The notes beneath the pieces are model-generated. The model was not told the origin of the DNA, ran no database searches, and saw only the letters and a program-made list of their open reading frames with translations. The translations under genes were made by a program, and so were the position numbers. This document shows, piece by piece, positions 6,609 to 25,891 of a stretch of DNA of 64,000 nucleotides; position 1 is the first letter of the stretch, and every line of letters starts with the position of its first letter. Origin of the DNA: an uncultured Alphaproteobacteria bacterium (GTDB taxonomy: Bacteria; Pseudomonadota; Alphaproteobacteria; Rs-D84); contig CATOOF010000001.1 in NCBI GenBank assembly GCA_951801825.1, positions 200,936 through 264,935 on the forward strand, read 5' to 3'.

Positions 6609-7682
6609 TTATGACAGTGCGGCCGTTATCTGGTCCTGCATCTGGAATGTTCCCAGAACAACCCATGCAATTATCAGCGATACCAGCATGATTCCTATGC
6701 TGTTAAGGGTGCTGGAAATCGCCTCCATCCGGCGTACGGAATCGTCCAGATAGTCATTTGCCACGCGCGACAGATTCTGGTCAAAACCGTTCATATCTGC
6801 ATATATTGCCAAATCGCCTATGATTTCATCATTCGGGAAATCCAGCCCCGTATTAGCCAGCGCCACCCCCAAATTATCACCATTTGCGATATGTCGCAAC
6901 GCGGCGCTTAAAACCCCGCGCAGATATCTGTTTCCATTATCGGCCAACATACGCATCGCATCGGGTACGGTCATTCCGGCGGCCACCATCGCCGACAGCG
7001 ACATCAACCACGACACGGAAACACGTATTTTATAAACACTCCACGGCGGCATGCGGTCCATAAACGCACGCGCACGCCCTGTCCAGTTTGGCAGACTGAC
7101 CCAAATAACCCCCGTCAAAATAACCGCCACCAGAACGACCATAAACCAATATTTATGCGCCGCCGCACTCAGCCATATCAGCGACGCGGCCGCACCGCGC
7201 CATACAACGTCCGTACCGGCCGCATCGGCCAGTGGCGGAACCAGATACAGCCCCACCATAATTATTATCCCAAACGTCAGCGCCAACAAAAACATCGGAT
7301 ATGCCATTGCGGATGCCATTGCACGGTTTATACGGCGCGTACCTTCAACCACGCGGCCTATATTTTCCAGCGCCACCGCCAGATTTGAAATATTTCCCGA
7401 CGTCAGCAACAGTGTTTCTTCCGGCGGAACCCAGCCGCGTGTGGCCTCTGAAAAACTCATACCGCGTTCCAGATTTTTTTGCCATTGACGCATTACAATT
7501 GCAAACGGTTCGCCCGGTTTTCGCCCACCGCGCGATTCAATCATCTCTATCCGCCCCAGCGCATTCATCAACGTAAACTCGTTACGCAACAGCGACGCTA
7601 ATTTACGACATGTCGCCATACGCTTTGACGTGTTCAGACGAAATACAATTTTTGCATACAGTTTTTCCAGCCGTTCCATCAA
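6609..7682 (-). CDS. Type IV pilus / T2SS platform protein, GspF/PilC/TadB superfamily (BfpE/TcpE/PilR-like)
   Basis: 357 aa. Two cytoplasmic GspF-like domains separated by three predicted TM helices. A 4-nt ATGA overlap joins it to the upstream ATPase gene. Confidence 0.75.
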   Translation of the reverse strand: MMERLEKLYAKIVFRLNTSKRMATCRKLASLLRNEFTLMNALGRIEMIESRGGRKPGEPFAIVMRQWQKNLERGMSFSEATRGWVPPEETLLLTSGNISNLAVALENIGRVVEGTRRINRAMASAMAYPMFLLALTFGIIIMVGLYLVPPLADAAGTDVVWRGAAASLIWLSAAAHKYWFMVVLVAVILTGVIWVSLPNWTGRARAFMDRMPPWSVYKIRVSVSWLMSLSAMVAAGMTVPDAMRMLADNGNRYLRGVLSAALRHIANGDNLGVALANTGLDFPNDEIIGDLAIYADMNGFDQNLSRVANDYLDDSVRRMEAISSTLNSIGIMLVSLIIAWVVLGTFQMQDQITAALS

Positions 7683-9307
7683 TATACCCCCGGCCGGTCC
7701 AGCAGCCCAACCCAGCGTTCCAGTTCATCAACACCGATTATACCCTGCAGCATTAATGACACGGCGGCCTCTTTCAGTGTACGCCCGTCCATATTTTCCA
7801 GCCAATATCGTACGGCACCGTCTGTATCGCCCGACAGTGCCAGGCGCAAAAATTCGCTGTTTGTGATTATGATTTCCCCGGCCTTGATACGCCCCAGCGT
7901 TCCGGTCCGGCCGCATTTTTCACATCCCGCCCCGCGGACAAACACCTGGCGCAGGCCCAATTCCCCGAACGCATCCATAACGCGTCGATATGCGGGATGT
8001 TCTGGATGATCGGCCAGCGGCTCGCGACAATCCGGACACAGTTTTTTAAACAACCGCATCGATATCAGACCGCGCATCATTGTTTCTTCTTTCAGCTTGA
8101 ACCCTTCGACCCCCATATCCAGCAATCGCGTCAGCGCCGCCATTGCAGAGTTCGCATGCAGCGTCGTCCAAACATTGTGACCCGACAACGCGCCCTTTAC
8201 CGTTAACTGTGCCGCCGCCAGTGTTCGTATTTCCCCAACCATCAGCGTATCAGGGTCACTGCGCAACGCCGCCGCCAATGCCTCTGTAAACTTTTCCTCG
8301 CGCTGTTCTTCGTTCATGGCGTTGACCACAGGCATCTGATGTGCGCCAAAAATCTTTTGTTCGGCCGGGTCTTCAACCGTAATCAGGTTGATTTCATATC
8401 GCCGCTCTTTCAGCATCAGCGACATATTCCGCACCAGCGTTGTTGACTTACCCGAACTGGTTGGACCGGCAACAACCACCAATCCCGTCGGGAACGAACG
8501 CAACTGCATCAACAGTTTTTGCTCATACTCGCCAAATTCCTGGCCGGATTTTATCCCCTCTGACGGATTGTCGTACAGCAGACGCATAACGACATACCGA
8601 CTGCCGAATGCAATGGGATTAAACTGCATACGTATCGCCAGCACGCCCGCCGGCAGATATAAATCCTTGGTCCCACGCAGGGGCGTGCGCCCGTCTTTCT
8701 GGGCGGACTGATATTCGTTCTGGGCATAGTTGGCATTGGATATGTCGGCCGATGCAAACGCCGCGCGAACAAATGATTCGCCCCATCCGGAATTATATTC
8801 CAGTACCGGCTGCATACTGCCGTCTATGCGGAAATAAATAGTGGTCTGGTCTGCAACCTCTATATGAATGTCGGAAACTTTTTGTGCGGCGGCACGTGCA
8901 ACGATATCGACAAAATCCTTTTGCATCTGGTTGTCGTAATCGGCGCGTCCGCGGCCGTCGCCGGCGCGGCCCTCATACGTCTTGTATATTGTCGACAACA
9001 GTCCTAAATCGGAATAAAAAGGCGTGTCAGCCTTTCGCCCGCGTCGTGCCAGCAAATCAATAAACGCCAAAACGCGCCCGTCGTATCTGTGCGTGCGCGA
9101 TATAATCAGCTCTCCGCCTGAAAAATAGGCAATTAAACTGCGCGTGTCCTTGGACAGCTCAAATTCGCCCCCGGCGGCCGTCAGCAAACGATTACCATTT
9201 GCAAAAAGATAGTCGACGATGTCTTTATTAGTCGCATTCTCCAGCCCCGCCGGCACAGACGGCGTGGTTGAAAAAGGATTTATTATGTTTTTATCTGTCG
9301 TCGCCAT
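7679..9307 (-). CDS. GspE/PilB-family secretion/pilus assembly ATPase (BfpD/TcpT/PilQ-like)
   Basis: Walker A GPTSSGKSTTL, Asp and His boxes (VGEIRTLAAAQ, TTLHANSA) and a C-terminal tetracysteine CPDC...CEKC motif typical of GspE/PilB. 542 aa. Confidence 0.85.
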   Translation of the reverse strand: MATTDKNIINPFSTTPSVPAGLENATNKDIVDYLFANGNRLLTAAGGEFELSKDTRSLIAYFSGGELIISRTHRYDGRVLAFIDLLARRGRKADTPFYSDLGLLSTIYKTYEGRAGDGRGRADYDNQMQKDFVDIVARAAAQKVSDIHIEVADQTTIYFRIDGSMQPVLEYNSGWGESFVRAAFASADISNANYAQNEYQSAQKDGRTPLRGTKDLYLPAGVLAIRMQFNPIAFGSRYVVMRLLYDNPSEGIKSGQEFGEYEQKLLMQLRSFPTGLVVVAGPTSSGKSTTLVRNMSLMLKERRYEINLITVEDPAEQKIFGAHQMPVVNAMNEEQREEKFTEALAAALRSDPDTLMVGEIRTLAAAQLTVKGALSGHNVWTTLHANSAMAALTRLLDMGVEGFKLKEETMMRGLISMRLFKKLCPDCREPLADHPEHPAYRRVMDAFGELGLRQVFVRGAGCEKCGRTGTLGRIKAGEIIITNSEFLRLALSGDTDGAVRYWLENMDGRTLKEAAVSLMLQGIIGVDELERWVGLLDRPGVY

Positions 9308-9327
9308 TTCTACCGCCCGGTTTATGC

Positions 9328-9987
9328 TCAGCGATTGCCGCCAATGTTTAATGTCTGGCTTTTGCCGTCTTTGACAAACACAACGCCATCATCCAATGAA
9401 ATAGATTTCACAGAAAACCCGTCCAGGTCCGCCCCGACACGAATACGTTTTGTCTGGCCGGTGTTAAGCGATTCCACCGTCGCCTGCAGCTGGGAACCGG
9501 CGCCTATTACGTTTATCAGACGAAAATTGTCCGCTATGGCGTCATCGCCATCATCCTCGGATGCGCGCGCCGCAGAAGATGTTGCGGCCCGTGGGGCGGC
9601 GGCCTCCTCCTCTAATGATTTCTTTTCGCGTGCCAATCTTGCGGCCTCTGCCTCCAGCTTGGCTTTTTCTGTTTCCAGCTCCTGTTGCTGGGCCTCGGCC
9701 CGGCCCGACAGGGTATCTATTTCCATATGCAGTTTTATCTTTTCCGCCGCCAACCGGTCCAGTTCCAAATCCAGCTGGGCGCGTTCTTTTTCCAACTGCA
9801 TCAAAACCTTTTCCTGTTCCAAATCCGTAATCTGCTGAAACAGGCTGCCCTCAACCTTGTAATCGGCAACCGCCTGGGCGCCGCGTAAATCCATTTCATC
9901 GTCGGCCGCGACATCCTCTGCACGCACGCCCCCGCATACCAATACGGCAAACATCGCCGCCACATACCAGATTTTCTTATTTTGCAT
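9328..9987 (-). CDS. Secreted periplasmic coiled-coil protein, probable pilus assembly component (BfpU/TcpS/PilP position)
   Basis: Signal peptide MQNKKIWYVAAMFAVLVCGGVRA. A long Glu/Leu/Ala-rich coiled coil. C-terminal beta-rich domain. Position in the operon matches the periplasmic component. Confidence 0.5.
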   Translation of the reverse strand: MQNKKIWYVAAMFAVLVCGGVRAEDVAADDEMDLRGAQAVADYKVEGSLFQQITDLEQEKVLMQLEKERAQLDLELDRLAAEKIKLHMEIDTLSGRAEAQQQELETEKAKLEAEAARLAREKKSLEEEAAAPRAATSSAARASEDDGDDAIADNFRLINVIGAGSQLQATVESLNTGQTKRIRVGADLDGFSVKSISLDDGVVFVKDGKSQTLNIGGNR

Positions 9988-11314
9988 ATATTATCACCTC
10001 ATAGTTCCAGATGCGTCGCGTTGCATCCCATGCACATCGCGTCATATACACGCCGCCAAAATCAGCGAATATCTCCATAAACTGCATCGGCGTCAGCTTG
10101 GATGACGCGGCAATTTCTACAATATCGACAGAAACAGTTTCAACGCCGTTTGTTATCGCATCCGCAACAACACCTATTTCGGCATCGTCGTCAATAGACT
10201 GAAACAGACTGTACACATCGCGTACAATTGTGGCGGCATCACGTTCGTCGCGCGACGCGACAGTGTCTAATTCCGGCAACCGCACGCGGACATTCAACGA
10301 ATTCTCGGCCTGTTCGCGCACAAACGCCCCGGGCATCAAATCACCTGCAATATCATAAAAATCGGTAAGTGTTCCAAACCCGCGTCGAAAATCCGCACTG
10401 GCGTATTGTTCGCCGCATTCTGTCGATGTCTGATTCCATCCGGCCACCGGCTGCATTAAAAACCCAATCGCACGATAGCATGTTTCCGCACGTGCCATTG
10501 GATCTGGCAGATAATCATACGGCATGCGCAATGGTTCTATGGGCGCGGCCTTTTCTATTTCAAATGCCGCATCCAGCTCTTTATTTTTTTCTTCTATTCT
10601 GCGCTTGTACTCGGCGGCCAGTTCCGGATTTATCGACGAAACCTGGGGCCGCGGAGTCATCATCTGAGCAATCGGCCCGCGAAACATATAAACCAGCCCC
10701 AACACAAACAGCGCGATTATCGCCGCCGAGGCCAGCCCCATTTTTATCCGGCTGATATGACGCAGTACCGCCGGCGCACGGCCGGTTATCACATCAGACA
10801 GTGCCCGCTCTACCGCGCGCGGCATAGACCATGCGCTGGGGGCGAACAACGCAGACCAGTCTGGTATCTGGGCCAGACGCAGATATTCGGCACGCGCCGC
10901 CGCCTCTGAATCGAATAAAACATCGTTTAATATTATTCCGTTTCGCACCGCGACCAGGTAATACATGCGACCTGTCTGAAACACCCCCAAAAATGACGAG
11001 TACTCGGTCATGGTGTCCATGATTTCAGCCGCGGCGCTGTGCATTCCGCGGCGATGGCCCATCTGGCGCGACCCCAACCCGACCATGGCCCGATAATCCA
11101 CATACAAACTTAACTTTCCATCAATGGAACGCGCCAAACTGCGCGCATAATTGCGTGCAATAAAACCACTGGCGATTGGCTGCCAAAACAACCCTGTGGC
11201 GTATTTTTTCCTATCAACAGTTATTACTTGATTTATCAAACTCTCTCCCGGATATCCTTGAATGCAATTATAACATAAAATTACGGCGCATGGCAAACAC
11301 AGAATAAAAAACAC
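9977..11314 (-). CDS. Bitopic inner-membrane protein with a cytoplasmic N-domain, probable assembly ATPase partner (BfpC/TcpR/PilO-like)
   Basis: 445 aa with a single central TM helix (MGLASAAIIALFVLGLVYMF). An 11-nt overlap joins it to the downstream gene. The synteny bitopic-periplasmic-ATPase-platform matches type IVb pilus operons. Confidence 0.5.
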   Translation of the reverse strand: MFFILCLPCAVILCYNCIQGYPGESLINQVITVDRKKYATGLFWQPIASGFIARNYARSLARSIDGKLSLYVDYRAMVGLGSRQMGHRRGMHSAAAEIMDTMTEYSSFLGVFQTGRMYYLVAVRNGIILNDVLFDSEAAARAEYLRLAQIPDWSALFAPSAWSMPRAVERALSDVITGRAPAVLRHISRIKMGLASAAIIALFVLGLVYMFRGPIAQMMTPRPQVSSINPELAAEYKRRIEEKNKELDAAFEIEKAAPIEPLRMPYDYLPDPMARAETCYRAIGFLMQPVAGWNQTSTECGEQYASADFRRGFGTLTDFYDIAGDLMPGAFVREQAENSLNVRVRLPELDTVASRDERDAATIVRDVYSLFQSIDDDAEIGVVADAITNGVETVSVDIVEIAASSKLTPMQFMEIFADFGGVYMTRCAWDATRRIWNYEVIIYAK

Positions 11315-14679: not shown

Positions 14680-14756
<77 letters not shown>

Positions 14757-14898
14757 AGATTTTCCGCAGAATTCTGCGGATTTTTTATTACTCTCCCCAC
14801 CATCAAATTTTCCCGTTTGCTATGTATTTGCTATGGATGGCATTTGCGACCATTAACGATTTCCGTTGAATATTAAGGATAATAGTATAGGCTAAATC

Positions 14899-15645
14899 AT
14901 GTCTTCAAAGGAGATTTGTATGAATTATACAGAATGGGTTGATATTAAGCCACTGAAAAAATGCACGTTGCAACAGGCATGTGAATTTGCCGCCTTTAAT
15001 TGGGAACCGGTGGACGACTTTACCGACAAGACACTGAAAAGACCATCCGACCGAACAAGCGCAAATGAACGCAACGACACAATTTGGCAAAACAAAATGA
15101 AAACAGCCGAAGACAAGATAACATATTTCCTTAGAGCTAATAAACTGATTGCCTCCGGCAAGGTCAAAACCAAACGGATTGAAAAAATTGACCTGTCAAC
15201 TGACTGTGTTATTAACATTGAAAACAATGCAATAACAGACGACGCACACACATACACGGACATAGAACTTGATTTCTATGAACTGCAAAGCATACTAAAA
15301 CACCCACTGTCACGAATGCACTTTACATTGTCGCTGGAAAACGACTGTATTTTCTTAACCATTGATGATAACGCTGTAAAAATACTCGTCAAACGCCTGC
15401 AGGCCACAGCCAAAAACACCAGCATCATCAGAAATATTATGAACAACCCGAACAAACTGATTACACGCGACGAATTTGCAAACATTGACAAGTACGATAG
15501 AATTGACCAAATACTTGACAGCTGCTTACCAAGTGACATTTATCATCTGTTTTTTGATTGCACATCAAATTCGGCACTTTTTAACCCAAACGCATCCGAT
15601 ATAGATTTACAAAAACACGGCATAAAAACACTGACAGTCGTATAA
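14899..15645 (+). CDS. Hypothetical protein (island cargo, 248 aa)
   Basis: AT-rich ORF followed by a rho-independent terminator at about 15664-15713. Confidence 0.4.
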   Translation: MSSKEICMNYTEWVDIKPLKKCTLQQACEFAAFNWEPVDDFTDKTLKRPSDRTSANERNDTIWQNKMKTAEDKITYFLRANKLIASGKVKTKRIEKIDLSTDCVINIENNAITDDAHTYTDIELDFYELQSILKHPLSRMHFTLSLENDCIFLTIDDNAVKILVKRLQATAKNTSIIRNIMNNPNKLITRDEFANIDKYDRIDQILDSCLPSDIYHLFFDCTSNSALFNPNASDIDLQKHGIKTLTVV

Positions 15646-15799
15646 AAGCGTCATCATTTCCATAAAAAAACGCACCCAAATTCATAACAAAGGGTGCTTT
15701 TTTTATGCAAAGAAAAAGACACATACACCTTTCGTCTTTTCCTCAGTATTTTCAATCAGCATAAGGTATCATAACATTATAAAACCAAAAGGTTATACT

Positions 15800-16009
15800 A
15801 TGAATGAAATTAAACTCCAACTACTTGACCAAAAGATGGCGGCGACCTATCTGGGAACAACCGTCGCCAGTATGAACACATTGCGCGCCCAGAACAAGTT
15901 GAACATCCCGTTTGTTCGCTTTGGACGTCGCATTAAATACAAACGCGAAGACCTTGACGCATGGATTGCACAAAATCGCGTTGTACCAACAACAGACACC
16001 AACTTCTAA
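15800..16009 (+). CDS. AlpA/excisionase-family helix-turn-helix DNA-binding protein
   Basis: 69 aa. The pattern YLG...S....L......P.V.FG.R..Y...DLD.WI is typical of the AlpA/Xis phage regulatory family. Confidence 0.6.
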   Translation: MNEIKLQLLDQKMAATYLGTTVASMNTLRAQNKLNIPFVRFGRRIKYKREDLDAWIAQNRVVPTTDTNF

Positions 16010-16132
16010 CCTTTCGTTTATGACGCTGAACTGTGCTTTACATGGCTATTTACCAGCGCATAGACCAAACACAAAACCACAACTGCCATAAATACATGCG
16101 CAGTTAAAGTAACCATTAGGGAACAGATAATC

Positions 16133-16951
16133 ATGAAGGATAGAAAGGAGATAATTGAATGGATAAATAACCAAATCAACACAGAAACGTTATTCTTGTC
16201 GGTTCATTTTGATACGCCACCAACAACCAAAGAAGAAATTTGCGCCCGTTGCCGACCGATATTCAAACACCTGTTCAGAAGTCTTGTCGGTCGTCATTGG
16301 CTTAAAGCATACAACCGTTATTTCACTGTCATAGGCTTTCAGGAATACGGTAAATACGGAAACATGCACGCACATTTCTTGCTTGTATGCCGGACAAAGT
16401 TTAACGCCACAACGGTATTAAAACGCTTAATAACCCTGTCCGACATTATAAAAATGGATGTATGGCAATCCGAAACCGACAAAGCCACACAAAACAAACG
16501 ATATTCAAATGACATTGTTATAAAACAGACATATTCCAGCGATGTCATCAACTATACAACCAAAGAGATACGCATCTTTAATCAACGCATCAGCGACACC
16601 CTGATTCTTGATGTAGATTTGTTTAACAAGACAACCATAGGAGAAAACGACATGTCAAATTCTCATCCGAACACCAGCGGCCTGACCCCGTTCAACAAGA
16701 TGGACGCTGACGAACGCCGTAAAATACAGAGCGCGGGTGGCATCGCCCGTTCAGAGAAAGCCCGACAGTTAAAAAGTATGACTGAAATAATCAACGGCCT
16801 GCGCATAGCATCAGATACCGACCCAATAGAATCCGCCGTTTCCAATCTGTATTTCAGTTTGATTGACCCGACAGTATCCGTCAATGAACGACTGCGTATA
16901 CTTACCACCCTTTACAAGATAATCGGGACAGAAAAAACAAAACCGGAATGA
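16133..16951 (+). CDS. Rolling-circle replication initiator, HUH endonuclease superfamily (putative)
   Basis: Motif 2 is HUHUUU (NMHAHFLLV). Motif 3 is YxxK (VINYTTKEI). A motif-1-like TLFLSVHF lies upstream. Confidence 0.55.
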   Translation: MKDRKEIIEWINNQINTETLFLSVHFDTPPTTKEEICARCRPIFKHLFRSLVGRHWLKAYNRYFTVIGFQEYGKYGNMHAHFLLVCRTKFNATTVLKRLITLSDIIKMDVWQSETDKATQNKRYSNDIVIKQTYSSDVINYTTKEIRIFNQRISDTLILDVDLFNKTTIGENDMSNSHPNTSGLTPFNKMDADERRKIQSAGGIARSEKARQLKSMTEIINGLRIASDTDPIESAVSNLYFSLIDPTVSVNERLRILTTLYKIIGTEKTKPE

Positions 16952-17097
16952 CCTACTGCACAGGCGAACGACAGAGCATAACAACATCCGATTTACAGGG
17001 CAATGACAGGGCATATCAGCCCTGTTTTTATACTTTTACGCTCGCCAACAAAAACATCTTTTCACTGCACAATCACTGCTGACTGGCACACCACACC

Positions 17098-17469
17098 TTA
17101 TTTAATCACATCATCCTTTTTTGTTTTGTTGTCACATATAAAGCAATCACTGACTCGCATTTGGCACAAATCCCACTGCAAATTCATTTCGTCATATTTC
17201 TTCTTAACTGTCGCACTTGGATTTTGCATGGCTATCAAGAAAAGGTCACTTCTTTCCTTATAAAAATCTATGGCAGATTGATTTGACACAAAACCGTACT
17301 TACTACACTTAATATCTTTTTTATATTCTTTTAAACACTCGCAAAATTCTACGTTTTCCTTTTTTGTGCGAACAGGCATACAATTATCATACAAAAACAA
17401 TCCAACACACCCGACAACAGCAATCCCAAAAATTACCAACAATACTTTCAATACCTTTTTGACATTCAT
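17098..17469 (-). CDS. Small Cys-rich membrane-anchored or secreted protein (123 aa)
   Basis: N-terminal hydrophobic segment and 8 Cys residues. AT-rich island cargo. Confidence 0.4.
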   Translation of the reverse strand: MNVKKVLKVLLVIFGIAVVGCVGLFLYDNCMPVRTKKENVEFCECLKEYKKDIKCSKYGFVSNQSAIDFYKERSDLFLIAMQNPSATVKKKYDEMNLQWDLCQMRVSDCFICDNKTKKDDVIK

Positions 17470-17490
17470 TTTGTTCTCCCTTGTTTCAAA

Positions 17491-17937
17491 TTAAAAACAC
17501 TTATCAAATTGTGAATTCGTTATATACGCGTCATATTGTGATGAATGTTCTTCATCATAGTAGATAGGCGAAAACATACATTCTCGTTTTACACATTCCG
17601 ACGCTCTGTGCGCCCATCCCCAACAATCCGAATGGCCATCATATACACAGCGGTCATAAAGACGATTCCCGTAACCGGTCGCAAACCAACCAATCCCATC
17701 CAAATAATCAATATAGTCTTCGCACTTTATGCGCGCCTTTTCCCACTTCTCTTTCTTTTCCCTTTCAACCCGTGCGGCTTGGCGTTGTTGTTCCTTATAT
17801 TCCTCCTGAATAGACTTTACTCGCGTTATACACGCATAATTTAACACATGGCATTCATATTTTTCTTCGCCGACTGTGTACACTTGTGAACACCCGCCAA
17901 CAAGCATCATCGCAACCAAAATAACCATTTTTCGCAT
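17491..17937 (-). CDS. Cys-rich lipoprotein (148 aa from MRKM)
   Basis: Lipobox MRKMVILVAMMLVGGCS. 10 Cys in the mature part. Coiled-coil-like segment rich in E/K/R. Confidence 0.4.
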   Translation of the reverse strand: MRKMVILVAMMLVGGCSQVYTVGEEKYECHVLNYACITRVKSIQEEYKEQQRQAARVEREKKEKWEKARIKCEDYIDYLDGIGWFATGYGNRLYDRCVYDGHSDCWGWAHRASECVKRECMFSPIYYDEEHSSQYDAYITNSQFDKCF

Positions 17938-18241
17938 AATAACACACCACCTTTTGTTTACGCAAAAGATGGTGCGGGGAATTAAAGAAATCACTATACA
18001 GATGACCCCGATAGCTTTCGGATATAATCCTGTTTTATGGCTACCGGTTCCCCGCTTTCCCAGCGGGGATATGAAATTTATGGTGCCATATCCCGGCACA
18101 CCCTGTATAGCGCGGTTCTTTACGCCACGGCATCCTCTGCGGATACAGTACTCAAAATACCCAAAAACGAGAAAAAAGTCAAATTATTAAAAACATCACG
18201 CTCTGATTTCTCATCATTATAACACTTCAGTTAATTAACAA

Positions 18242-19267
18242 TTGAAACAAATAAAATATGATATAAAATCAAGAAAAAGGATACCAATTATGAAAACAAC
18301 CAATGAAGCCGAAAATATGGCCAAAGCTTTATCCGTCACCGACATGTCTCTAGAAGAAGCAATGGTTAAACTTGGTAAAAAAACAGAACCCCCAAAAACC
18401 ATACCAACAGATTTTATTCAAGACGGCTGTTCGGAAGTGTCATTGTTTAAAAATCACCCTATTCGTAAAATATTCCACAAAAACGAATGGTTTTATTCAA
18501 TAGTGGACATTATAAGAGTTATCGTTGGGACAGACAGACCTAGAAAATACTGGGGAGACCTAAAAGATAAACTATTGAACACAGAAGGTTTTTTTGACAT
18601 TTCCGACAAAATCAACAAACTCAAAATGGTTTCTTCTGATGGAAAAAAATACCCAACTGAAGCCGCTGATGCCGAAACCATCTTCCGTATAATACAATCA
18701 ATTCCAAGCCCAAATGCCGAACCATTTAAACGGTGGTTTGCAAGGGTTGCATATGAACGAATACAAGAAATTCAGAATCCTGAAGTCGGTGCCAGAAGGA
18801 TAATGATGCTTTATAAAGCAAAAGGGTATTCAGACGAATGGATTGCCAATCGTATAAAGACTATTGCCGCGCGTAAAGAATTGACCGACGAATGGCAAAG
18901 ACGAGGCATAACAAGTGCAGGCGAATTCGCAATCTTAACAAACATTATTAATAAAGAAACTTTTGATAAGAATGTACAAGACCATAAAACTCTCAAAGGT
19001 TTGAGTAAAACAGATGATTTACGCGACCACATGACACCTATTGAACTTGCTTTGACAATGCTTGCAGAAACAACAACTAAAGAATTCGCGAAAAGTATGA
19101 ATGCCCAAGGAATGAAATCAAATGCCGACGCCGCCAAAAAAGGAGGCGAAGTAGGAAAAGCGGCTCGTATCAGTATAGAACGAAAACTAGGTAAATCAGT
19201 AGTATCCGAAACAAATTATTTAACTCCAAGACAAAAGCAAATGCGGATTGAAAATAAAAAGTCATAA
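18242..19267 (+). CDS. DinD-like / Bro-N domain protein (DNA-damage-inducible protein D family), paralog 1
   Basis: Shares long conserved blocks with the ORF at 21910-22734, for example WFYSIVDIIRVIVGTDRPRKYW, IQSIPSPNAEPFKRWFA and ARKELTDEW. Followed by a terminator at 19270-19298. Confidence 0.55.
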   Translation: MKQIKYDIKSRKRIPIMKTTNEAENMAKALSVTDMSLEEAMVKLGKKTEPPKTIPTDFIQDGCSEVSLFKNHPIRKIFHKNEWFYSIVDIIRVIVGTDRPRKYWGDLKDKLLNTEGFFDISDKINKLKMVSSDGKKYPTEAADAETIFRIIQSIPSPNAEPFKRWFARVAYERIQEIQNPEVGARRIMMLYKAKGYSDEWIANRIKTIAARKELTDEWQRRGITSAGEFAILTNIINKETFDKNVQDHKTLKGLSKTDDLRDHMTPIELALTMLAETTTKEFAKSMNAQGMKSNADAAKKGGEVGKAARISIERKLGKSVVSETNYLTPRQKQMRIENKKS

Positions 19268-19461
19268 ATATAAAACCGGTCATACGACCGGTTTTTATCA
19301 TTTTTCTTTTCTGACGCCTTTAAAAGGTCTTCCATCAGATTTAACATCCATAAATTGCCCTGTCGCACCATTTCGTTTAACATAGCAACCATTTGTCGGA
19401 TTAAAACATTGAGACCGTTCTCTAACAGCCCCTATTCTACGGTTGTCTCCATATGGATTAT

Positions 19462-19716
19462 TTACAGCCATCCCAAACCTCCTACTGTATTACAACAAGT
19501 TCCCTTCATACATTCACATCGATTTCCTGCTCGTACCAAAGCAAGTATTTTTATGGTTGATGTAAAAGGGTCTGGACTTTTATGATTTGAATTACCATAC
19601 GAACTGGTATTCACATGACACTGATGACATAATACCATCGCATTATCCAAACCATTACCACCATCCACTCTTTTGTGATGAACTTCTAAACCATACGTTC
19701 TTGCACATCTTGACAT
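19462..19716 (-). CDS. HNH endonuclease (small, 84 aa), possibly disrupted
   Basis: HNH core EVHHKRVDGGNGLDNAMVLCHQCH. A 57-aa ORF at 19301-19471 overlaps its 3' end in another frame. Confidence 0.55.
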   Translation of the reverse strand: MSRCARTYGLEVHHKRVDGGNGLDNAMVLCHQCHVNTSSYGNSNHKSPDPFTSTIKILALVRAGNRCECMKGTCCNTVGGLGWL

Positions 19717-20094
19717 GTTAATTCCTTTTTGTTGTCAAGGCGGCAATCATACCCAAGACAAAGTAATTGCCATATCTTCGGGACTTTGTTATAATGGGCT
19801 TGTTCTGGGGGCCCAGTTATAGGTATCCCATATGTAAGGATTGTGATAACATAAATCGCAATCCTTGCGTAAATTACAACATATAGTCATAATTTACATC
19901 CTATAACCACAACATATTGATTATCATTTCGATTCGCAACAGGAATAAACAAAATAAAGTTTATTTTTGTCTTTACTTTTAAAAATCGCAGAAAACTGCA
20001 CATTAGCGCCATAAACGAATCATTAAAATAATTTACTTAAATTAATTTGGTACATCATAATTGATATTAACTTATTCATATTTATAAATTTGAA

Positions 20095-21282
20095 TCAAGA
20101 TGACACTTTCCCCAACTCTAGCATCCGGTCAGTGGCTTTTTCCATAGCCGCACGAACGGGGTCGGCCGACAATCTGGCATAGACAAGAGTTGCGCTGGTT
20201 GATTTATGCCCCAGTGATTTGCCGATTATGTTTGTATTGGTACCGGTTATGGCCTCATAACTACCCATAGTACGTCGCAGGTCGTGCAGACGCAAGTTCT
20301 CTATTCCTGCCCTTGCCAGCAAATCCTGCCACGGTCTTTTCGGGTCTTCCAAATGGCCGCTTTTGCTCTTATTACTCGGTAAAACCCAGTCTGATTTCGC
20401 GTGCGGTTTGATTTTTTCAAACAATTCCCTTAATTGACTGGTTATCGGTACCTGCATAGGTTCACTGTTTTTGGTATCCGGCAGGTACATAAAACCGTTA
20501 TTCAAATCAATCTGCGACCAGCGCAAGGCCAGAATATTGCTACGACGCTGACCGGAAAAGAGTGAAATTATAACATAATTCTTAAAGACTTCGTTATTCT
20601 CCGCCCACAGCGCATTAAAAAATCGGCGAAATTCGTCGGATTGCAAGAACCTGTCACGGCTTTTTTCCGGGAATTTACGAATACCAGCGGCCGGGTTATT
20701 ATGACCCTTTACGTACCCATACTTCGCCGCAATTACGTACATATGCTTAATCAGGGACAATACACGGTTCGCCGTATACGGACTGTGCGTCTGTTTGGTC
20801 TGATTATGCAGTTTTTCCAGTTCGGATGTTTTGATACTAAGCAAGTACCGGTTATGAAAGTCCCCCAAACGATGTGTAAAGATACTGTCATCATTGGCGA
20901 CCGAACGGGGCTTTTTATGTACAAGCGAATATTCCGGCTTATAAACCGTTTCATAAAATTGTTTCAGCGTTATATCACGTAAGTTTTCACGACGTTTTTC
21001 CCCCGGATGCGTACCATTTTGTGATGCGTTTTCCGACTTTGTATGCGCCGCCGCACGTGCCGCCACCACCTTAAACTGTGGCCAGCGCCCTATTTTCGTT
21101 CGTACAGGCTTTTTCTCAAAGAACATATAATGATAAAAGGTCTTTGTCCCACCATACGTCACAATCAGCATCAAGCCGTCCTTTGACCCGGAATCGTAAT
21201 ATATGGCCTGCCCGTCCTCTTTGGCCGGAATCGGCAACGCCGCAATGCCCTTTTCTGTAAAATTGATGTGTTGTGCTTTCAT
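20095..21282 (-). CDS. int: Tyrosine-type site-specific integrase
   Basis: 395 aa. C-terminal catalytic region with the HDLRRT...GH...LVYARL pattern (R-H-R-Y). Lies inside the tRNA-bounded island. Confidence 0.85.
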   Translation of the reverse strand: MKAQHINFTEKGIAALPIPAKEDGQAIYYDSGSKDGLMLIVTYGGTKTFYHYMFFEKKPVRTKIGRWPQFKVVAARAAAHTKSENASQNGTHPGEKRRENLRDITLKQFYETVYKPEYSLVHKKPRSVANDDSIFTHRLGDFHNRYLLSIKTSELEKLHNQTKQTHSPYTANRVLSLIKHMYVIAAKYGYVKGHNNPAAGIRKFPEKSRDRFLQSDEFRRFFNALWAENNEVFKNYVIISLFSGQRRSNILALRWSQIDLNNGFMYLPDTKNSEPMQVPITSQLRELFEKIKPHAKSDWVLPSNKSKSGHLEDPKRPWQDLLARAGIENLRLHDLRRTMGSYEAITGTNTNIIGKSLGHKSTSATLVYARLSADPVRAAMEKATDRMLELGKVSS

Positions 21283-21283
21283 C

Positions 21284-21910
21284 TCAATCCCGTTCCCATT
21301 TGGCTACGTCATCCCAAATTCCAACTAAATCCATAAATTCCTTAAATAAAACACTCAGTTTATACGGATATATATCAGGGTTAAATGTTTCAAAAAATCC
21401 GGTTCCCAACAATGACAACAAAACAGCTGAACCTTTTGTTTTACTAACAGCTTTCTTTACAGCAAAAACATCTGCCGGCGCCAACTTTATAATTCCAAAA
21501 AGTTCACGATGTTGCTTTGATATAGCAATACTCGTCATTGGGTCTTTGTACGCTTTAACAATTTCCGCCAAAAATTGAATTTGCTCATAAGACAATTCAG
21601 AAAGTATTGTATTAAAATGATGAAATCGGGACGAAGACAACTGCTCTTTATTATTCATCCCAAGTATCAGCCTTGCCAAAAGACGAATATTATTCTTTCC
21701 GACCCCTTCATTAATATCATTTAATAATCTATAGACAATGGATAAAATATCATCTTGATTAACACGCGAAAAATCCCCATCACGCACTTCTTGCAAGATA
21801 ATCTCTTGCAGTTCTTTTTGTCTTCTTTGTAAAAAATGTTTGGCCATCTCTGTTGGCACGCCAATCAAAGAAGCCGCATCAGATATACAAGCAACCAATA
21901 AACCAGACAT
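21284..21910 (-). CDS. Hypothetical protein (208 aa) immediately upstream of int in the same operon
   Basis: Its stop abuts the int start. Overlaps the upstream DinD-like gene by 1 nt. Confidence 0.4.
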   Translation of the reverse strand: MSGLLVACISDAASLIGVPTEMAKHFLQRRQKELQEIILQEVRDGDFSRVNQDDILSIVYRLLNDINEGVGKNNIRLLARLILGMNNKEQLSSSRFHHFNTILSELSYEQIQFLAEIVKAYKDPMTSIAISKQHRELFGIIKLAPADVFAVKKAVSKTKGSAVLLSLLGTGFFETFNPDIYPYKLSVLFKEFMDLVGIWDDVAKWERD

Positions 21911-22734
21911 TACTCTTTATCAACCTTTGTTAGCAACTTTGCATTTTGACCCGTCACAACGGACTTCCCTGTTTCCTGTTCCAATGTCAACCGCGCCTGA
22001 CGTGCCACATTACCGCCACGCGATGCGACCTTCATAGTTTCCTTAAAACCCTGTGGATTTTCCTTTCTGGCGATTTCAGTTGTGGATAATTCCGCCAACA
22101 TATTCAAAACCAATTCAGCATTGCTCATATTGTCGCGTAAAGACTCCTTATACAGTCCCTTCATGCGCTTATAATCACGGGTTTTCATCCCAGACCATGC
22201 GCGCGTTATTTCATCCGTCAATAACGCATATTCCAATCCCTGCTTTACACCGGCCTTGTCCCATTCGTTTGTTAATTCCTTGCGGACTTCAATAGACTTT
22301 AAGCGTTGCGCCACCCATTCCGGCGAATGCCCCATACGTTGATAATAACGCAGGGCGCGTTGTATGGCGATTTCAGGGTCGGAGATTTCATCTATGCGCT
22401 GGCTACCAACACTGGCCAACCATAATTTAAAAGGTTCGGCCTTCTTAGACGGTATTGATTGAATAAGACGCAAAATCTGTTCAGTATCAGCAACATCAGT
22501 ACTATAAAATTTACCATCTGAAGATTTTAATTTCAGTTGTCCGATTTTTTCGGACAACTGACTACCTTCTTGATTTAACTGTTTTTTCAAATCACTCCAA
22601 TATTTACGAGGTCTGTCCGTACCGGTCAATGCCGCAATAACATCAACGACAGAAAAATACCACTTCTCAGCCTCTTCATCCCAAGTGGTTCTGATATTTT
22701 GGTTTTCAAACAGTTTTAAACTTGTATCCGCCAT
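21910..22734 (-). CDS. DinD-like / Bro-N domain protein, paralog 2
   Basis: 274 aa. N-terminal WYFSVVDVIAALTGTDRPRKYW. About 55-60% identical to paralog 1 over the core. Same size as E. coli DinD. Confidence 0.55.
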   Translation of the reverse strand: MADTSLKLFENQNIRTTWDEEAEKWYFSVVDVIAALTGTDRPRKYWSDLKKQLNQEGSQLSEKIGQLKLKSSDGKFYSTDVADTEQILRLIQSIPSKKAEPFKLWLASVGSQRIDEISDPEIAIQRALRYYQRMGHSPEWVAQRLKSIEVRKELTNEWDKAGVKQGLEYALLTDEITRAWSGMKTRDYKRMKGLYKESLRDNMSNAELVLNMLAELSTTEIARKENPQGFKETMKVASRGGNVARQARLTLEQETGKSVVTGQNAKLLTKVDKE

Positions 22735-22998
22735 GGCACGACCCCTTTCTTTATCAAATCCGCAAAAATCCGGGAATATTCCATTTTGGAAAACCCCAGT
22801 TGTAAAGAAATTCTTTACAACTTACCCCGACCCATAACCCGGACACTTTTTGCTATATATTTGCTATACGCGGCGTCTTTTGCTATGGATTTTCGTTTTT
22901 TGCTATTAACTTTTGTTAATTTTATGATATTCTACAATCCGCAGAAAATCAAGGAAAATTTAGAATTATTTATCGTAATTTATCACCTGACCCATTAA

Positions 22999-23035
22999 CT
23001 GAAGGTCTGTGGTTCAAATCCACACTCCGCAACCA
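22999..23035 (+). repeat. attR: a 37-bp copy of the tRNA-fMet 3' end
   Basis: Exact match to 14720-14756. Followed by a cccggcccgtccggg hairpin plus T-run, probably the original tRNA terminator. Confidence 0.8.
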
Positions 23036-23475: not shown

Positions 23476-25089
23476 ATGAACGTAAAAAACTTATCTTTGT
23501 CGTTTGGCACCCAGGTTATATATGATGCGGCGGAATTCAACCTGGGGCCGCGGGACCATGCCGGCATTATTGGGGTAAACGGTGCCGGAAAATCAACACT
23601 GCTTAATATACTTTCCGGGCGCATCATGCCGGATACCGGCAAAATAGACACTGGGGGCGCCCGTATGGGTTATCTGCCCCAGATAATAGAAATAGATACC
23701 CCCGACATAACAGTATGGGAATTTTTATTATCCGGACGGCCGATTGCCAAATTAAACTCAGACCTGCAAGATTTATACATAAAACTGGCCGATGCCCCAG
23801 AAGATGAACAACTGGCAGATAAAATATCATATGTTCAGCATGAACTGGATTATTATGATGCATACGGTGCCGAAGATGCATTACTGGCGCTGATAGAAAA
23901 CATGGGCATCGGTTCTGAAATCTTAGACATGCGTCTGTGCGACCTGTCGGGGGGCCAAAAATCCAAGGTTGCGTTTACACGTCTGCTCTATTCCATGCCG
24001 GAAATAATGTTACTGGACGAGCCTACAAACCATCTTGACGCCGCAACGCGTGATTTTGTAACCAAATATCTGCAACGCTATCGCGGATGTATAATGGTAA
24101 TAAGCCACGACACAGGCTTTTTAAATGCGATCGCGAACAAAATAATCCACATAGACAAAACAACGCACAAGATATCGGTATTTGACGGCAACTATGATGC
24201 ATTCAAGCGCAAGGATGCGGCAATGCGCCATGCACGAAACGTACAAATAGCCGCACAAGACAGACTTATAAACAATCTGTCGGATTTTGTTTCCCGTGCA
24301 AACGCGGCCAGCCCCACAAATCATGCAATGAAAAAAGCGGGCCATACACGCGCGGCACTGTTACAGAAAATATTAGACAACAGGATACAGCGCGAACAAG
24401 CATATAAAAAAGTAAAAATGGATTTGTCGCCGCACCGCGTCGGCAGTCGCCACCCAATCAACATTGATGATTTGTGGTTCCGTTACCCGGGGGCGCGCCT
24501 GCTTTACAGAAAACTGTCGTTTATTATTGAGGGCGGCGAACGTTTTCTTATTGTCGGCGAAAACGGGGCCGGCAAATCTACGCTGTTAAAATTAATAATG
24601 GGTTCGTTAAGACCGGAACGCGGTCGGATTGACATAAATCCTAAAACAGATATCGCATATTACGCCCAGGAACTGGAACAATTAAATCCGCAAGATACCG
24701 TGTTACAGGCGGTATCGTCTGACGATTATACAGATGTTCAGCTACGCGCGGTATTGGGTAATTTTCTATTCACGGGAACAGATGTGTTTAAAAAGATATC
24801 TGTTTTGTCCCCCGGGGAACGGGCGCGCGTAGCACTGTGCCGGATAATACTAAAGCGTGCAAACATGCTGATACTGGACGAGCCTACAAATCACCTGGAC
24901 CCCGATACCCAGGCGGTAATCGGTGATAATTTTCGTGATTTTTCCGGCACAATAATAGTGGTCAGTCATAATCCATCTTTTGTGGAACAAATTGGAATAT
25001 CACGTATGCTGATACTGCCATCGGGCAGAATCGAAGACTATGACCATGAAAAATTGGAATATTACTACTCAATAAATTCCAACAAATAA
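23476..25089 (+). CDS. ABC-F family ATPase (two ABC domains, no TM domains)
   Basis: Two Walker A sites (GVNGAGKST, GENGAGKST) and two LSGGQ-like signatures (LSGGQKSKV, LSPGERARV). The likely start is MNVKNLSL at 23476. Confidence 0.8.
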   Translation: MNVKNLSLSFGTQVIYDAAEFNLGPRDHAGIIGVNGAGKSTLLNILSGRIMPDTGKIDTGGARMGYLPQIIEIDTPDITVWEFLLSGRPIAKLNSDLQDLYIKLADAPEDEQLADKISYVQHELDYYDAYGAEDALLALIENMGIGSEILDMRLCDLSGGQKSKVAFTRLLYSMPEIMLLDEPTNHLDAATRDFVTKYLQRYRGCIMVISHDTGFLNAIANKIIHIDKTTHKISVFDGNYDAFKRKDAAMRHARNVQIAAQDRLINNLSDFVSRANAASPTNHAMKKAGHTRAALLQKILDNRIQREQAYKKVKMDLSPHRVGSRHPINIDDLWFRYPGARLLYRKLSFIIEGGERFLIVGENGAGKSTLLKLIMGSLRPERGRIDINPKTDIAYYAQELEQLNPQDTVLQAVSSDDYTDVQLRAVLGNFLFTGTDVFKKISVLSPGERARVALCRIILKRANMLILDEPTNHLDPDTQAVIGDNFRDFSGTIIVVSHNPSFVEQIGISRMLILPSGRIEDYDHEKLEYYYSINSNK

Positions 25090-25145
25090 AAAAAGTATCC
25101 GATGATAACCACCGGATACTTAGAAACCTCGTCAGAAAAGCTGAC

Positions 25146-25280
25146 TTATTTTTTCTTAAAGCCCTGCTTTGCCTTGAACTTAGGATTATCAGGGTCAATC
25201 AAGATGACTTGCTTGCCACGGCGAATTTGTTTGATGTTACCGCGCTTTTTCCAAGCCTTTAAAGAGCTTAAAAATTTCAT
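25146..25280 (-). CDS. rpmJ: 50S ribosomal protein bL36 (alphaproteobacterial type)
   Basis: 44-aa minus-strand ORF that is below the ORF track's length cut-off and that I translated myself: MKFLSSLKAWKKRGNIKQIRRGKQVILIDPDNPKFKAKQGFKKK. Matches the bL36 pattern. A hairpin terminator follows at 25087-25115. Confidence 0.7.
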   Translation of the reverse strand: MKFLSSLKAWKKRGNIKQIRRGKQVILIDPDNPKFKAKQGFKKK

Positions 25281-25367
25281 ATCTAATCCTTTTTGTGATG
25301 CGATTATAAACGCTTTTTGTAAAAAATCAAATGATTATTAATATTTTTTGTTGTTTTTGTTGGGCCT

Positions 25368-25552
25368 GTTGAAATTGTTGAAAAAAGTTGTTTTGTTTTT
25401 ATCAACAGGTTTTCAACAATAAAATGCCGGTTTTTCGGGTTATTTGTGTGAAGTTGTTAAAAACGGCCGGTGTTAAATTAACAGTTGAAAAAATCATGGT
25501 TATCAACGTTTTTAACATAAAAAGCCCAAATCTTTTTATACTTGTTGAAAAA
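25368..25552. repeat. Cluster of at least 7 GTTGAAA / TTGTTGAAAAA direct and inverted repeats between rpmJ and virB3
   Basis: Read directly from the sequence: gttgaaattgttgaaaaaagttg, ttttcaacaat, gttgttaaaaac, cagttgaaaaaatc, tatcaacg and cttgttgaaaaatg. Confidence 0.5.
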
Positions 25553-25570
25553 TGTCGAAATTGTTATAAT
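25542..25570 (+). promoter_or_regulatory. Putative sigma70 promoter for virB3: -35 TTGTTG, 17-bp spacer, extended -10 TGTTATAAT
   Basis: A spacing-correct hexamer pair. A GGAGA ribosome-binding site lies 8 nt before the ATG at 25595. Confidence 0.4.
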
Positions 25571-25594
25571 TCCTTTGAAAGGAGAATGTAGGCA

Positions 25595-25891
25595 ATGAAA
25601 CAACAGGTTTTAAAGGCCTTGGCAAACCCGGCGCGCATATTTTATGTGCCGTATTCACTGGCTGTGATGAATTTCGTAATCCAGTTTTTGATATTCGTGA
25701 CGGTATTTACTGTCGTGATTGTTTTTACGCGCGGGAAAGTCGCAATAAATCCGATGTATTTTCTGTTGTCGCTGATCGGCGTTCACATGATTTTGGCCGT
25801 ATTTTCAAAACGGGAACCCCAGTTGGCACAAATAATTTCTGCCAAAATAAAATTATTAAAAGAAAAAATCCCGCGGAGGCTGGTTTCCTAA
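25595..25891 (+). CDS. virB3: Type IV secretion system protein VirB3
   Basis: 98 aa. N-terminal ALANPARIFYVPYSLAV (VirB3/TrbD signature) followed by two TM helices. Directly abuts virB4. Confidence 0.7.
   Translation: MKQQVLKALANPARIFYVPYSLAVMNFVIQFLIFVTVFTVVIVFTRGKVAINPMYFLLSLIGVHMILAVFSKREPQLAQIISAKIKLLKEKIPRRLVS

Follow-up and report, generated by a model that had tools for sequence, protein, structure and literature searches.

A divergent Rep-class HUH endonuclease, fused to a partner protein, in a small tRNA-Met island of an uncultured alphaproteobacterium

The DNA analysed here (the window) is a stretch of 64,000 nucleotides of contig CATOOF010000001.1 (assembly GCA_951801825.1, positions 200,936 to 264,935) from an uncultured alphaproteobacterium of the Rs-D84 lineage. 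The window contains an integrated island of about 8.3 kb at a tRNA-Met gene and, within the island, an open reading frame (ORF) that starts with an ATG and extends from 16133 to 16951 on the plus strand in the ORF listing of the window. An earlier reading of the sequence (the original prediction) had taken the 272-amino-acid product for an HUH-type replication protein (Rep) of an integrated element replicating by a rolling circle after excision. The bounds of the ORF proved exact; the single protein did not stand, as the ORF is made of two fused genes and all the motifs in question lie within residues 1-165. The parts of the ORF and the non-coding block that precedes it are as follows.

16016 to 16108, no strand assigned: conserved non-coding block, candidate double-strand origin or nick region (alignment with loci L001, L010 and L013)
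16133 to 16630, plus strand: HUH (Rep-class) endonuclease domain, residues 1-166 (alignment, Pfam, model, profile comparison)
16631 to 16651, plus strand: linker, residues 167-173 (KTTIGEN-D), the translated former intergenic spacer (DNA alignment with L001)
16652 to 16951, plus strand: partner protein, fused here, residues 174-272 (about 20 homologues that are separate proteins, phrog_2412, hhalign, AlphaFold2)

The three motifs named in the original prediction are all present in the ORF, TLFLSV at residues 19-24, HAHFLL at 79-84 and NYTTKE at 140-145, and correspond to motif I, motif II (H79-A-H81-FLL) and motif III (Y141-TT-K144-E145) of an HUH domain. Their combination is rare in the window. 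When stop-to-stop ORFs of at least 100 amino acids were scanned in all six frames (192 ORFs, 38,203 amino acids), the pattern H-u-H-u-u-u followed 30-120 residues on by Y-x-x-K occurred in a single one, namely 16133-16951. The motifs are also conserved in the family: in an alignment of 29 sequences, reaching down to 23% identity, W56, E71, H79 and H81 are invariant, conservation reaches 90% or more at G73, Y141, K144 and E145, and the motif I strand keeps the pattern LF(L/I)(S/T)(V/I). Together, the rarity scan and the alignment rule out a chance co-occurrence of the motifs and confirm their assignment. E71 is probably a metal-binding residue. Y141 sits 60 residues C-terminal of the HUH motif. 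Within the HUH superfamily, the order I-II-III, with the tyrosine after the HUH motif, characterizes the Rep class and not the relaxase class.

An exhaustive HMMER search of 1.84 billion representative proteins returned 48 proteins at E ≤ 1e-3, and the family amounts to about 27 representatives at 50% identity in this collection. A match to P0025, a repetitive protein of 1,366 amino acids with 17 matched stretches, was dropped as spurious. All source names found for family members read "hypothetical protein". A word-indexed protein search retrieved only 3-5 relatives, including an identical protein and two proteins of 165 amino acids that span the N-terminal 60%. The curated families to which the original prediction had pointed failed to recognize the protein: Rep_1, Rep_2, Rep_trans and Phage_GPA gave no match to it at E ≤ 1 in Pfam, and neither did Phage_CRI. 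Phage_GPA was matched, weakly (E 0.0057), by one of the 29 relatives. A PADLOC scan of ORF 16133-16951 was likewise without match.

Apart from that one weak Phage_GPA match, the only curated family matched by the window protein and its relatives is PF23343 (REP_ORF2-G2P), the HUH domain of Spiroplasma-virus ORF2 and of inovirus G2P-type replication proteins. In individual scans 18 of the 29 members matched it at E ≤ 0.01, with a best E of 4.6e-7. The match spans the region holding E71 and the HUH motif, and is precomputed on the record of one relative, P0020. The window protein itself is a divergent relative of PF23343, below the level of formal membership. The setting also differs: members of the present family belong to islands with an integrase, and filamentous-phage structural genes are not annotated in any of those examined.

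A second line of kinship leads to the Microviridae. In a tblastn search of phage genomes the sole match was weak (E 0.1) and fell under an annotated microvirus replication initiator. Alignment of the family with that initiator by hhalign gave a probability of 74.7% (E 2.6e-5) over motifs I and II, as compared to 1.6% and 0.06% for two unrelated proteins used as controls. The alignment pairs LFLSVHF with FFLTLTY, and QEYGKYGNMHAHFLL with GEYGAIRNRPHYHFII (QEYG..NMHAHFLL versus GEYG..PHYHFII); motif I (uuTuT) and motif II (GxYG...HxHuuu) of initiators of the phiX174 A/gokushovirus VP4 type are thus in register with those of the family. However, the alignment stops short of motif III and the microvirus protein is larger (273 amino acids). 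Initiators of the phiX type use two tyrosines, whereas the window family conserves a single Y-x-x-K-E. We conclude that the protein is a divergent, unannotated relative of REP_ORF2-G2P and microvirus-type initiators, with the nuclease fold of viral and plasmid Reps.

An AlphaFold2 model of the HUH domain, computed with the family alignment as input, had a pLDDT of 93.3 and a pTM of 0.88. Its elements are a strand containing motif I (19-25), two helices (33-52 and 56-63), a strand with E71 near its end (64-72), a strand with the HUH motif (78-86), a helix (92-101), two further strands (109-111 and 127-132) and a helix bearing Y141 (137-143). The top Foldseek match in the PDB was the Rep protein ORF119 of SIRV1 (probability 0.99, E 2.6e-3), followed by the Rep of wheat dwarf virus (0.97), the Reps of Vientovirus, TYLCV and circovirus, and RepB of pMV158. 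Four matches with E < 1e-3 were obtained in the BFVD viral library; among the best 50, the named proteins were replication or parvovirus nonstructural proteins, with the exception of one uncharacterized SIRV3 protein. The solved Rep domains (SIRV1 ORF119, 2x3g; geminivirus and circovirus Rep, 6q1m, 7vg8 and 6wdz; RepB of pMV158, 3dky) display the same order of elements as the window domain: motif I strand, helix, hairpin with the acidic residue, HUH motif and Y-x-x-K helix. They are nonetheless distant from it (TM-score 0.35-0.54, identity 13-17%), and the window domain differs in an additional helix at its N-terminus, in a second helix with an invariant GRHW motif, and in the lack of a helicase or oligomerisation domain.

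By the model, then, the domain has the fold of the Rep class, with motifs I, II and III placed as in that class. The structural comparison that the original prediction had called for came out in its favour, the best PDB and viral matches being Rep nuclease domains, and the identification as an HUH Rep is upheld by the conserved motifs, the PF23343 relatives and the microvirus profile match along with the model. Residues 1-165 would constitute a stand-alone Rep-class enzyme with nicking and joining activity.

Two readings under which the domain would not be a replication nuclease can be weighed on this evidence. An HUH fold can be non-catalytic, serving in origin binding or regulation as do the domains of papillomavirus E1 and SV40 T-antigen, or it can be a decaying remnant. 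E1 origin-binding domains do occupy Foldseek ranks 5-7, and the gene underwent a fusion in this strain (see below). However, across 29 relatives, some as divergent as 23% identity, substitutions at H79, H81, Y141, K144 and E71 are absent or rare, a pattern that would be unexpected without selection on catalysis, and independent assemblies carry the same unbroken ORF. We consider a non-catalytic role very improbable. The second reading, a single-strand transposase of the Y1 (IS200/IS605) or IS91/Helitron kind, strikes us as the least credible of all those considered. The protein is about as large as Y1 transposases, its best sequence match in the PDB, a weak one (E 0.84), falls on the HUH and tyrosine motifs of Helraiser, and the Foldseek list includes, far down, ISDra2 TnpA (probability 0.10). 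Against this, no Y1_Tnp or IS91 family was matched, both the gene and the motif upstream of it occur once in the window, and the gene is always found in an att-bounded, integrase-bearing island with a fixed gene order.

The features relevant to the integration of the island and to the genes preceding rep are listed here.

14680 to 14756, plus strand: tRNA-Met (CAT) gene, integration target (ARAGORN; Rfam tRNA, 62 bits)
14714 to 14756, plus strand: attL, the 3' 43 nt of the tRNA-Met gene (direct repeat with 22993-23035)
14816 to 14834, no strand assigned: 19-nt repeat TTTGCTATGTATTTGCTAT near attL (repeat search)
14899 to 15645, plus strand: ORF of 248 amino acids, first gene of the module (ORF listing; family scans without match)
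15800 to 16009, plus strand: Xis/AlpA-like HTH_17 protein of 69 amino acids (PF12728, E 2.9e-8; phrog_66 excisionase/regulator, E 8.5e-8; TIGR01764, E 1.1e-5)
20095 to 21282, minus strand: tyrosine integrase with arm-binding domain (PF00589, E 1.7e-21; PF13356, E 7.7e-8; phrog_1, E 1.8e-55)
22993 to 23035, plus strand: attR, a copy of the 43-nt tRNA-Met 3' end, 41/43 identical (repeat search)

The att repeats bound an island of 8,279 nt (8.28 kb, approximately 14757-23035), with a G+C content of 0.37-0.43 versus about 0.48-0.53 on the left flank. The only Rfam match in the island was the tRNA. Two further copies of the 19-nt repeat are found near attR, at 22849-22867 and 22879-22897 (95% and 79% identity; consensus TTTGCTAT(G/A)TATTTGCTAT). 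Because of their position and of the Arm-DNA-bind_3 domain in the integrase, these repeats are plausible arm-type binding sites for the integrase, or binding sites for Xis. The integrase (Int), the helix-turn-helix (HTH) protein resembling a directionality factor and the 43-nt direct repeats derived from tRNA-Met identify the island as an integrative element, in agreement with what the original prediction had deduced from int and xis.

The 123-nt spacer separating xis from rep is better conserved than its neighbour: three sequences agree at 70 of 156 positions, as compared to 46 of 171 in the preceding spacer. It can still be aligned with that of L013, where the Rep is 49% identical and the HTH gene is not detectably homologous. 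The conserved block begins with an inverted repeat, whose arms (16016-16028 and 16054-16065) show two compensatory pairs in the consensus fold. They enclose a conserved 25-nt loop (16029-16053) that holds TGTGCTTTnnnTGGCTATTT. A third half-site, ATGCGCAG, is located at 16096-16103, inside the conserved block GCGCAGTTA. A simple sigma-70 scan revealed no promoter in the xis-rep spacer to explain the conservation. A strict version of the loop pattern matched none of the fetched loci, probably owing to differences in register, and an unrelated inverted repeat of 21 nt occupies the same place upstream of rep in L019. From its sequence, the block 16016-16108 is a candidate origin at which the protein might bind and nick; an oriT or an operator would be an equally good reading of it.

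On balance, we think it probable that residues 1-165 are the replication initiator of the 8.3-kb island, acting by a rolling circle after excision. This reading starts from the observed motifs, conservation, fold class, fusion, att sites and gene order. In the proposed sequence of events, Int and the Xis/AlpA-like HTH protein would excise the island as a double-stranded circle, and the HUH domain would bind the inverted-repeat region 16016-16108 upstream of its own gene. Y141 would cut one strand, with H79, H81 and probably E71 holding the metal, and the enzyme would stay on the 5' end. The free 3'-OH would then prime rolling-circle synthesis by the host polymerase together with a host helicase of the UvrD/Rep type, the latter being proposed because the HUH protein is without a helicase domain of its own. 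The location of a distant relative beside a DnaB_C gene counts for this reading. The same logic operates in actinomycete elements of the pSAM2 type (RepSA) and in ICEBs1 (NicK), where a tyrosine integrase, an excisionase and a nicking initiator come together in a tRNA-integrated element. These elements, however, have initiators of different families, are conjugative and encode transfer genes; scans of the Pfam, PHROG, NCBIfam and PADLOC type detected no transfer genes in the 8.3-kb island.

A number of observations weigh against the protein being a rolling-circle initiator. The window protein scores 20.0 bits against PF23343 as the full ORF and 21.3 as the domain alone, short of the cut-off of 27.8; the NCBIfam scan of the ORF gave no match; and neither the protein by itself nor the family profile had a significant match among PDB sequences. 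The support from Foldseek is modest, the best E being 2.6e-3 and the TM-scores ranging from 0.35 to 0.54 for PDB matches (0.35-0.66 overall). A tblastn search of PLSDB plasmids produced a single match at chance level (E 8). A locus search with narrower alignments found one genome locus, two metagenome loci and, in the viral contigs of IMG/VR, no Rep relative; a relative on a plasmid or in a viral contig would have linked the family to autonomous replication. As for the nick-site hairpin that the original prediction expected beside rep, the conserved inverted repeat lies in the right place but no known nick consensus was recognised in the candidate origin, which is known from four sequences and has a single-strand fold z-score of only -1.07. 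That the domain is catalytic, that 16016-16108 is the origin and that the island replicates once excised are inferences.

The protein could also be viewed as a mobilisation relaxase that nicks an oriT of the excised island and pilots the strand through a type IV secretion system provided in trans. The inverted repeat upstream of rep would suit either kind of site, oriT or replication origin. The island would then be an integrative and mobilizable element, and the partner a relaxosome accessory protein. The literature on integrative elements describes relaxases akin to rolling-circle initiators (for example PMC5714925 and PMC6499999), and a host gene of the VirB4 type (25892-28309) lies 3 kb from the island. 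Yet the location of the tyrosine C-terminal to the HUH motif, the single histidine pair and the lack of a signature of the HxDxxxxHxH type all indicate the Rep class; in Mob-class relaxases the tyrosine precedes a motif of three histidines. Moreover, no relaxase or Mob family was matched in Pfam or NCBIfam, the closest structures come from viral and plasmid Reps, and no gene for a coupling protein or type IV secretion was found in the islands examined, with the possible exception of an FtsK-like ATPase gene beside a very distant relative. A relaxase seems to us unlikely.

The VirB4/TrbE-like ATPase gene just mentioned is on the plus strand, is followed by two small unannotated ORFs and is surrounded by housekeeping genes (ABC-F, YchF, DnaG and TopA). 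Its appearance is that of a scattered secretion gene of type IV and not of part of a conjugative element.

Returning to the initiator, none of the 48 HMMER matches covers the whole window protein: each aligns either with residues 1-165 or with residues 174-270. In the nearest relatives (L001-L006, L010 and L013-L015) a rep gene of 162-166 codons is followed, after a gap of 15-20 nt, by a gene for a protein of 114-149 amino acids homologous to window residues 174-272. The two genes are separate in all relatives found. In the DNA alignment with L001 they are divided by the TAA stop codon of rep, an AAGGAGG ribosome binding site and an ATG. The window sequence reads through this junction in frame (…LFNKTTIGENDM…), with AGGAG kept 7 nt before the ATG at 16652. 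Loss of the stop between the genes is confined to the window strain (window 16631-16951; compare L001 10499-10935 and L013 9490-9956). An independent JGI contig (L011) differs from window positions 16256-18652 by two substitutions and no insertion or deletion, leaving the junction unchanged, and an ENA assembly gives the same 272-amino-acid protein. The fusion is therefore not an assembly artefact: in this strain Rep and its partner have been joined by the loss of a stop codon. Translation from the internal ribosome binding site and ATG, both of which remain, may also yield the partner by itself.

Members of the partner family begin with MANxxPNTSGLxPFN…E…IQSAGGxASAxKRR. This N-terminal motif, PNTSGLxPFN...IQSAGGxA(R/S)xEK, is followed by three helices, and the AlphaFold2 model of the partner consists of three helices (pLDDT 84). 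The protein is basic and helical, and probably binds DNA. Fifteen of the 20 family members matched phrog_2412, a phage protein family annotated as "unknown function", and a tblastn search with the partner gave weak matches in Streptococcus phages. In two of these, Javan377 (L022, 3986-4453) and Javan141 (L023, 4010-4459), the matched ORF lies just upstream of the TerL gene and overlaps it, with the portal gene next. Both ORFs match phrog_2412 over their full length and, weakly, DUF5681. The hhalign comparison of the partner family with the Javan377 ORF gave 97.0% probability (E 1.1e-10, 87 columns) and that with the Javan141 ORF 96.2% (E 2.5e-9), as against about 0.1% for three control ORFs, taken from downstream of rep in distant islands. 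The phage proteins of the phrog_2412/DUF5681 kind share the motif NxxNLxPFN...E...I..GGxAS..(K/R)RR with the partner, the Javan377 protein over the 87 aligned columns; they differ in being about 150 amino acids long, the window partner measuring 99 and being fused to Rep, and phrog_2412 is without an assigned function. The top Foldseek matches of the partner model in the PDB were the small terminases of NV1, PaP3 and E217, all at E > 1 and not significant. Thus, the partner is possibly small-terminase-like, which we offer as a lead and not as a finding. Aside from the island, the position next to TerL in two phages suggests that phrog_2412 is probably a small terminase family not named as such by PHROGs.

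The remaining features of the island are its cargo genes and a terminator.

17005 to 17026, plus strand: terminator-like hairpin and T-run after the fused ORF (terminator scan)
17098 to 18099, minus strand: two small ORFs with weak signal-peptide/lipoprotein-like matches (ORF listing, family scans)
18242 to 19267, plus strand: PDC-S13 (Bro-N/DinD-like) cargo gene, copy 1 (PADLOC PDLC04920; Bro-N; phrog_15286)
19298 to 19471, minus strand: PDC-S38 candidate, 57 amino acids (PDLC05010, E 2.1e-31)
19462 to 19716, minus strand: HNH-like ORF, 84 amino acids (weak HNH matches)
21284 to 21910, minus strand: ORF of 208 amino acids with no assigned function (family scan)
21910 to 22734, minus strand: PDC-S13 cargo gene, copy 2 (PADLOC PDLC04920)

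The two PDC-S13 copies are diverged (PDLC04920 E-values of 9e-107 and 2.5e-128). A 39-nt inverted segment, 18527-18565 and 22585-22623 (74% complementary), is accounted for by their lying on opposite strands.

Islands with the same tRNA-Met site and the same left-hand module as in the window are present in related metagenome-assembled genomes of uncultured Alphaproteobacteria from the Hadza gut, with different cargo, for instance an HpaII restriction-modification system. More distant islands are found elsewhere; one of them (L007) adjoins a tRNA-Ser gene. The order int, small HTH gene, rep is kept in every related locus whose contig spans that region. In the distant islands the full order is int, an ORF of 230-320 amino acids abutting int, an HTH gene of 67-72 codons, rep, a small ORF and variable cargo; L007 and L019 carry two small HTH-type ORFs. 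The ORF of 230-320 amino acids occupies the position of the 248-amino-acid ORF of the window, often straight after int. Neither that ORF nor the HTH gene of the window shows significant BLASTP similarity to its positional counterparts in the distant islands (pairwise E 0.005 or weaker). The partner is present only with the closer Rep subfamily, and the ORF downstream of rep in the distant islands is not detectably related to it. Cargo in the distant islands comprises reverse transcriptases, a CTD12/MC8/DUF2326 system, a type III restriction-modification system with RhuM/Fic, AAA_15/AAA_21 ATPases, T5orf172 and AbiJ-like genes. It is defence-like in each island examined, and none of the related islands examined has conjugation or capsid genes.

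Some further details of these loci deserve mention. The region of the ORF overlapping or abutting int is at 6816-8575 in L013 (4-nt overlap), 5563-7352 in L007, 5729-7620 in L017 and 5113-7268 in L019. These ORFs recall iolg, the "integrase overlapping gene" that PICMI satellites need for excision, and no similarity among them was detected. In L014 (3656-6229) an island of the P0005 type adjoins a second integrase (394 amino acids, Arm-DNA-bind_3) with a neighbour of 235 amino acids, which hints at islands in tandem at the same site. On a 5.1-kb contig (L024, 608-2008 and 2124-4381), a very distant relative, P0046 (466 amino acids, with the HUH domain and a long C-terminal extension), is encoded beside a DnaB_C gene and an ATPase gene of the FtsK/SpoIIIE type. 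This context differs from that of the other members and is possibly like that of a plasmid or of an actinomycete integrative and conjugative element.

The nature of the partner and the layout of the islands raise the question of what replication would serve. PICMIs contain int, iolg, alpA and a replication gene, and are packaged as concatemers (PMC10803314). The present islands share with PICMIs and with VEIMEs (PMC9618062) a small size, the association of int and an AlpA-like HTH gene with one replication gene, and defence cargo, and the ORF that overlaps or abuts the end of int in the relatives resembles the iolg of PICMIs; short ORFs complete the likeness. PICMIs differ in using a primase for replication and in having no terS. 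The Pseudomonas tmRNA islands (PMC12595487), which have intY, alpA and an inovirus Gp2-like (HUH) protein among their core genes and are transduced by a jumbo phage, are far larger, their shared core alone measuring about 18 kb. The islands described here might form a hitherto unknown family of minimal phage satellites, hosted by uncultured Alphaproteobacteria of the gut. Upon induction by a helper phage, the stand-alone HUH initiator would make rolling-circle concatemers and, in the closer subfamily, the TerS-like partner would steer the packaging motor of the helper to them. This idea is compatible with a rolling-circle initiator and extends it, giving replication a purpose.

In its favour are the match of the partner profile to the TerL-adjacent ORFs of Javan377 and Javan141, with controls at about 0.1%, the small terminases at the top of the Foldseek list for the partner model, and the defence-like cargo of each island examined. 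On the other hand, phrog_2412 is annotated as of unknown function, with a terminase role deduced from gene position in two phages only; the Foldseek terminase matches have E > 1; the partner is missing from the more distant islands; relatives of Rep and partner were not found in the IMG/VR viral contigs; and neither a helper phage nor a pac site or capsid-related gene came to light. We hold the satellite proposal to be tentative, a possibility well behind the initiator role itself in likelihood.

Outside the island, the window includes a cluster of pilus or secretion genes of the T2SSE/T2SSF/PilO type (7679-11314, minus strand, and upstream), directly upstream of lpxC-lpxK-DUF374 and the tRNA-Met gene, whose synteny is conserved in related metagenome-assembled genomes. 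Low G+C stretches also occur at 1-2000 (0.32-0.39) and at 25001-26000 (0.36).

Systems that combine an integrative element with a rolling-circle initiator are already known; the parts that could be new are the pairing of Rep with its partner, their fusion in this strain and the PICMI-like layout. The constant pairing in the closer subfamily and the fusion constitute a hint of the Rosetta-stone type that replication is coupled to packaging or DNA recognition. PICIs, P4-like elements and PICMIs replicate with primase or helicase genes; the present islands would use an HUH initiator instead. If they are satellites, a new group of hosts and a new mode of replication would be added to what is known of satellites, and the islands would ferry restriction-modification systems, reverse transcriptases and PADLOC defence candidates; if they are not, the island of the window is an ordinary integrative element with a rolling-circle initiator. 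The family represents an unannotated branch of HUH initiators that marks small, integrase-bearing islands with anti-phage cargo in uncultured Alphaproteobacteria, those of the window type coming from human-gut (Hadza) metagenomes, and recognising it helps to find such islands and their boundaries.

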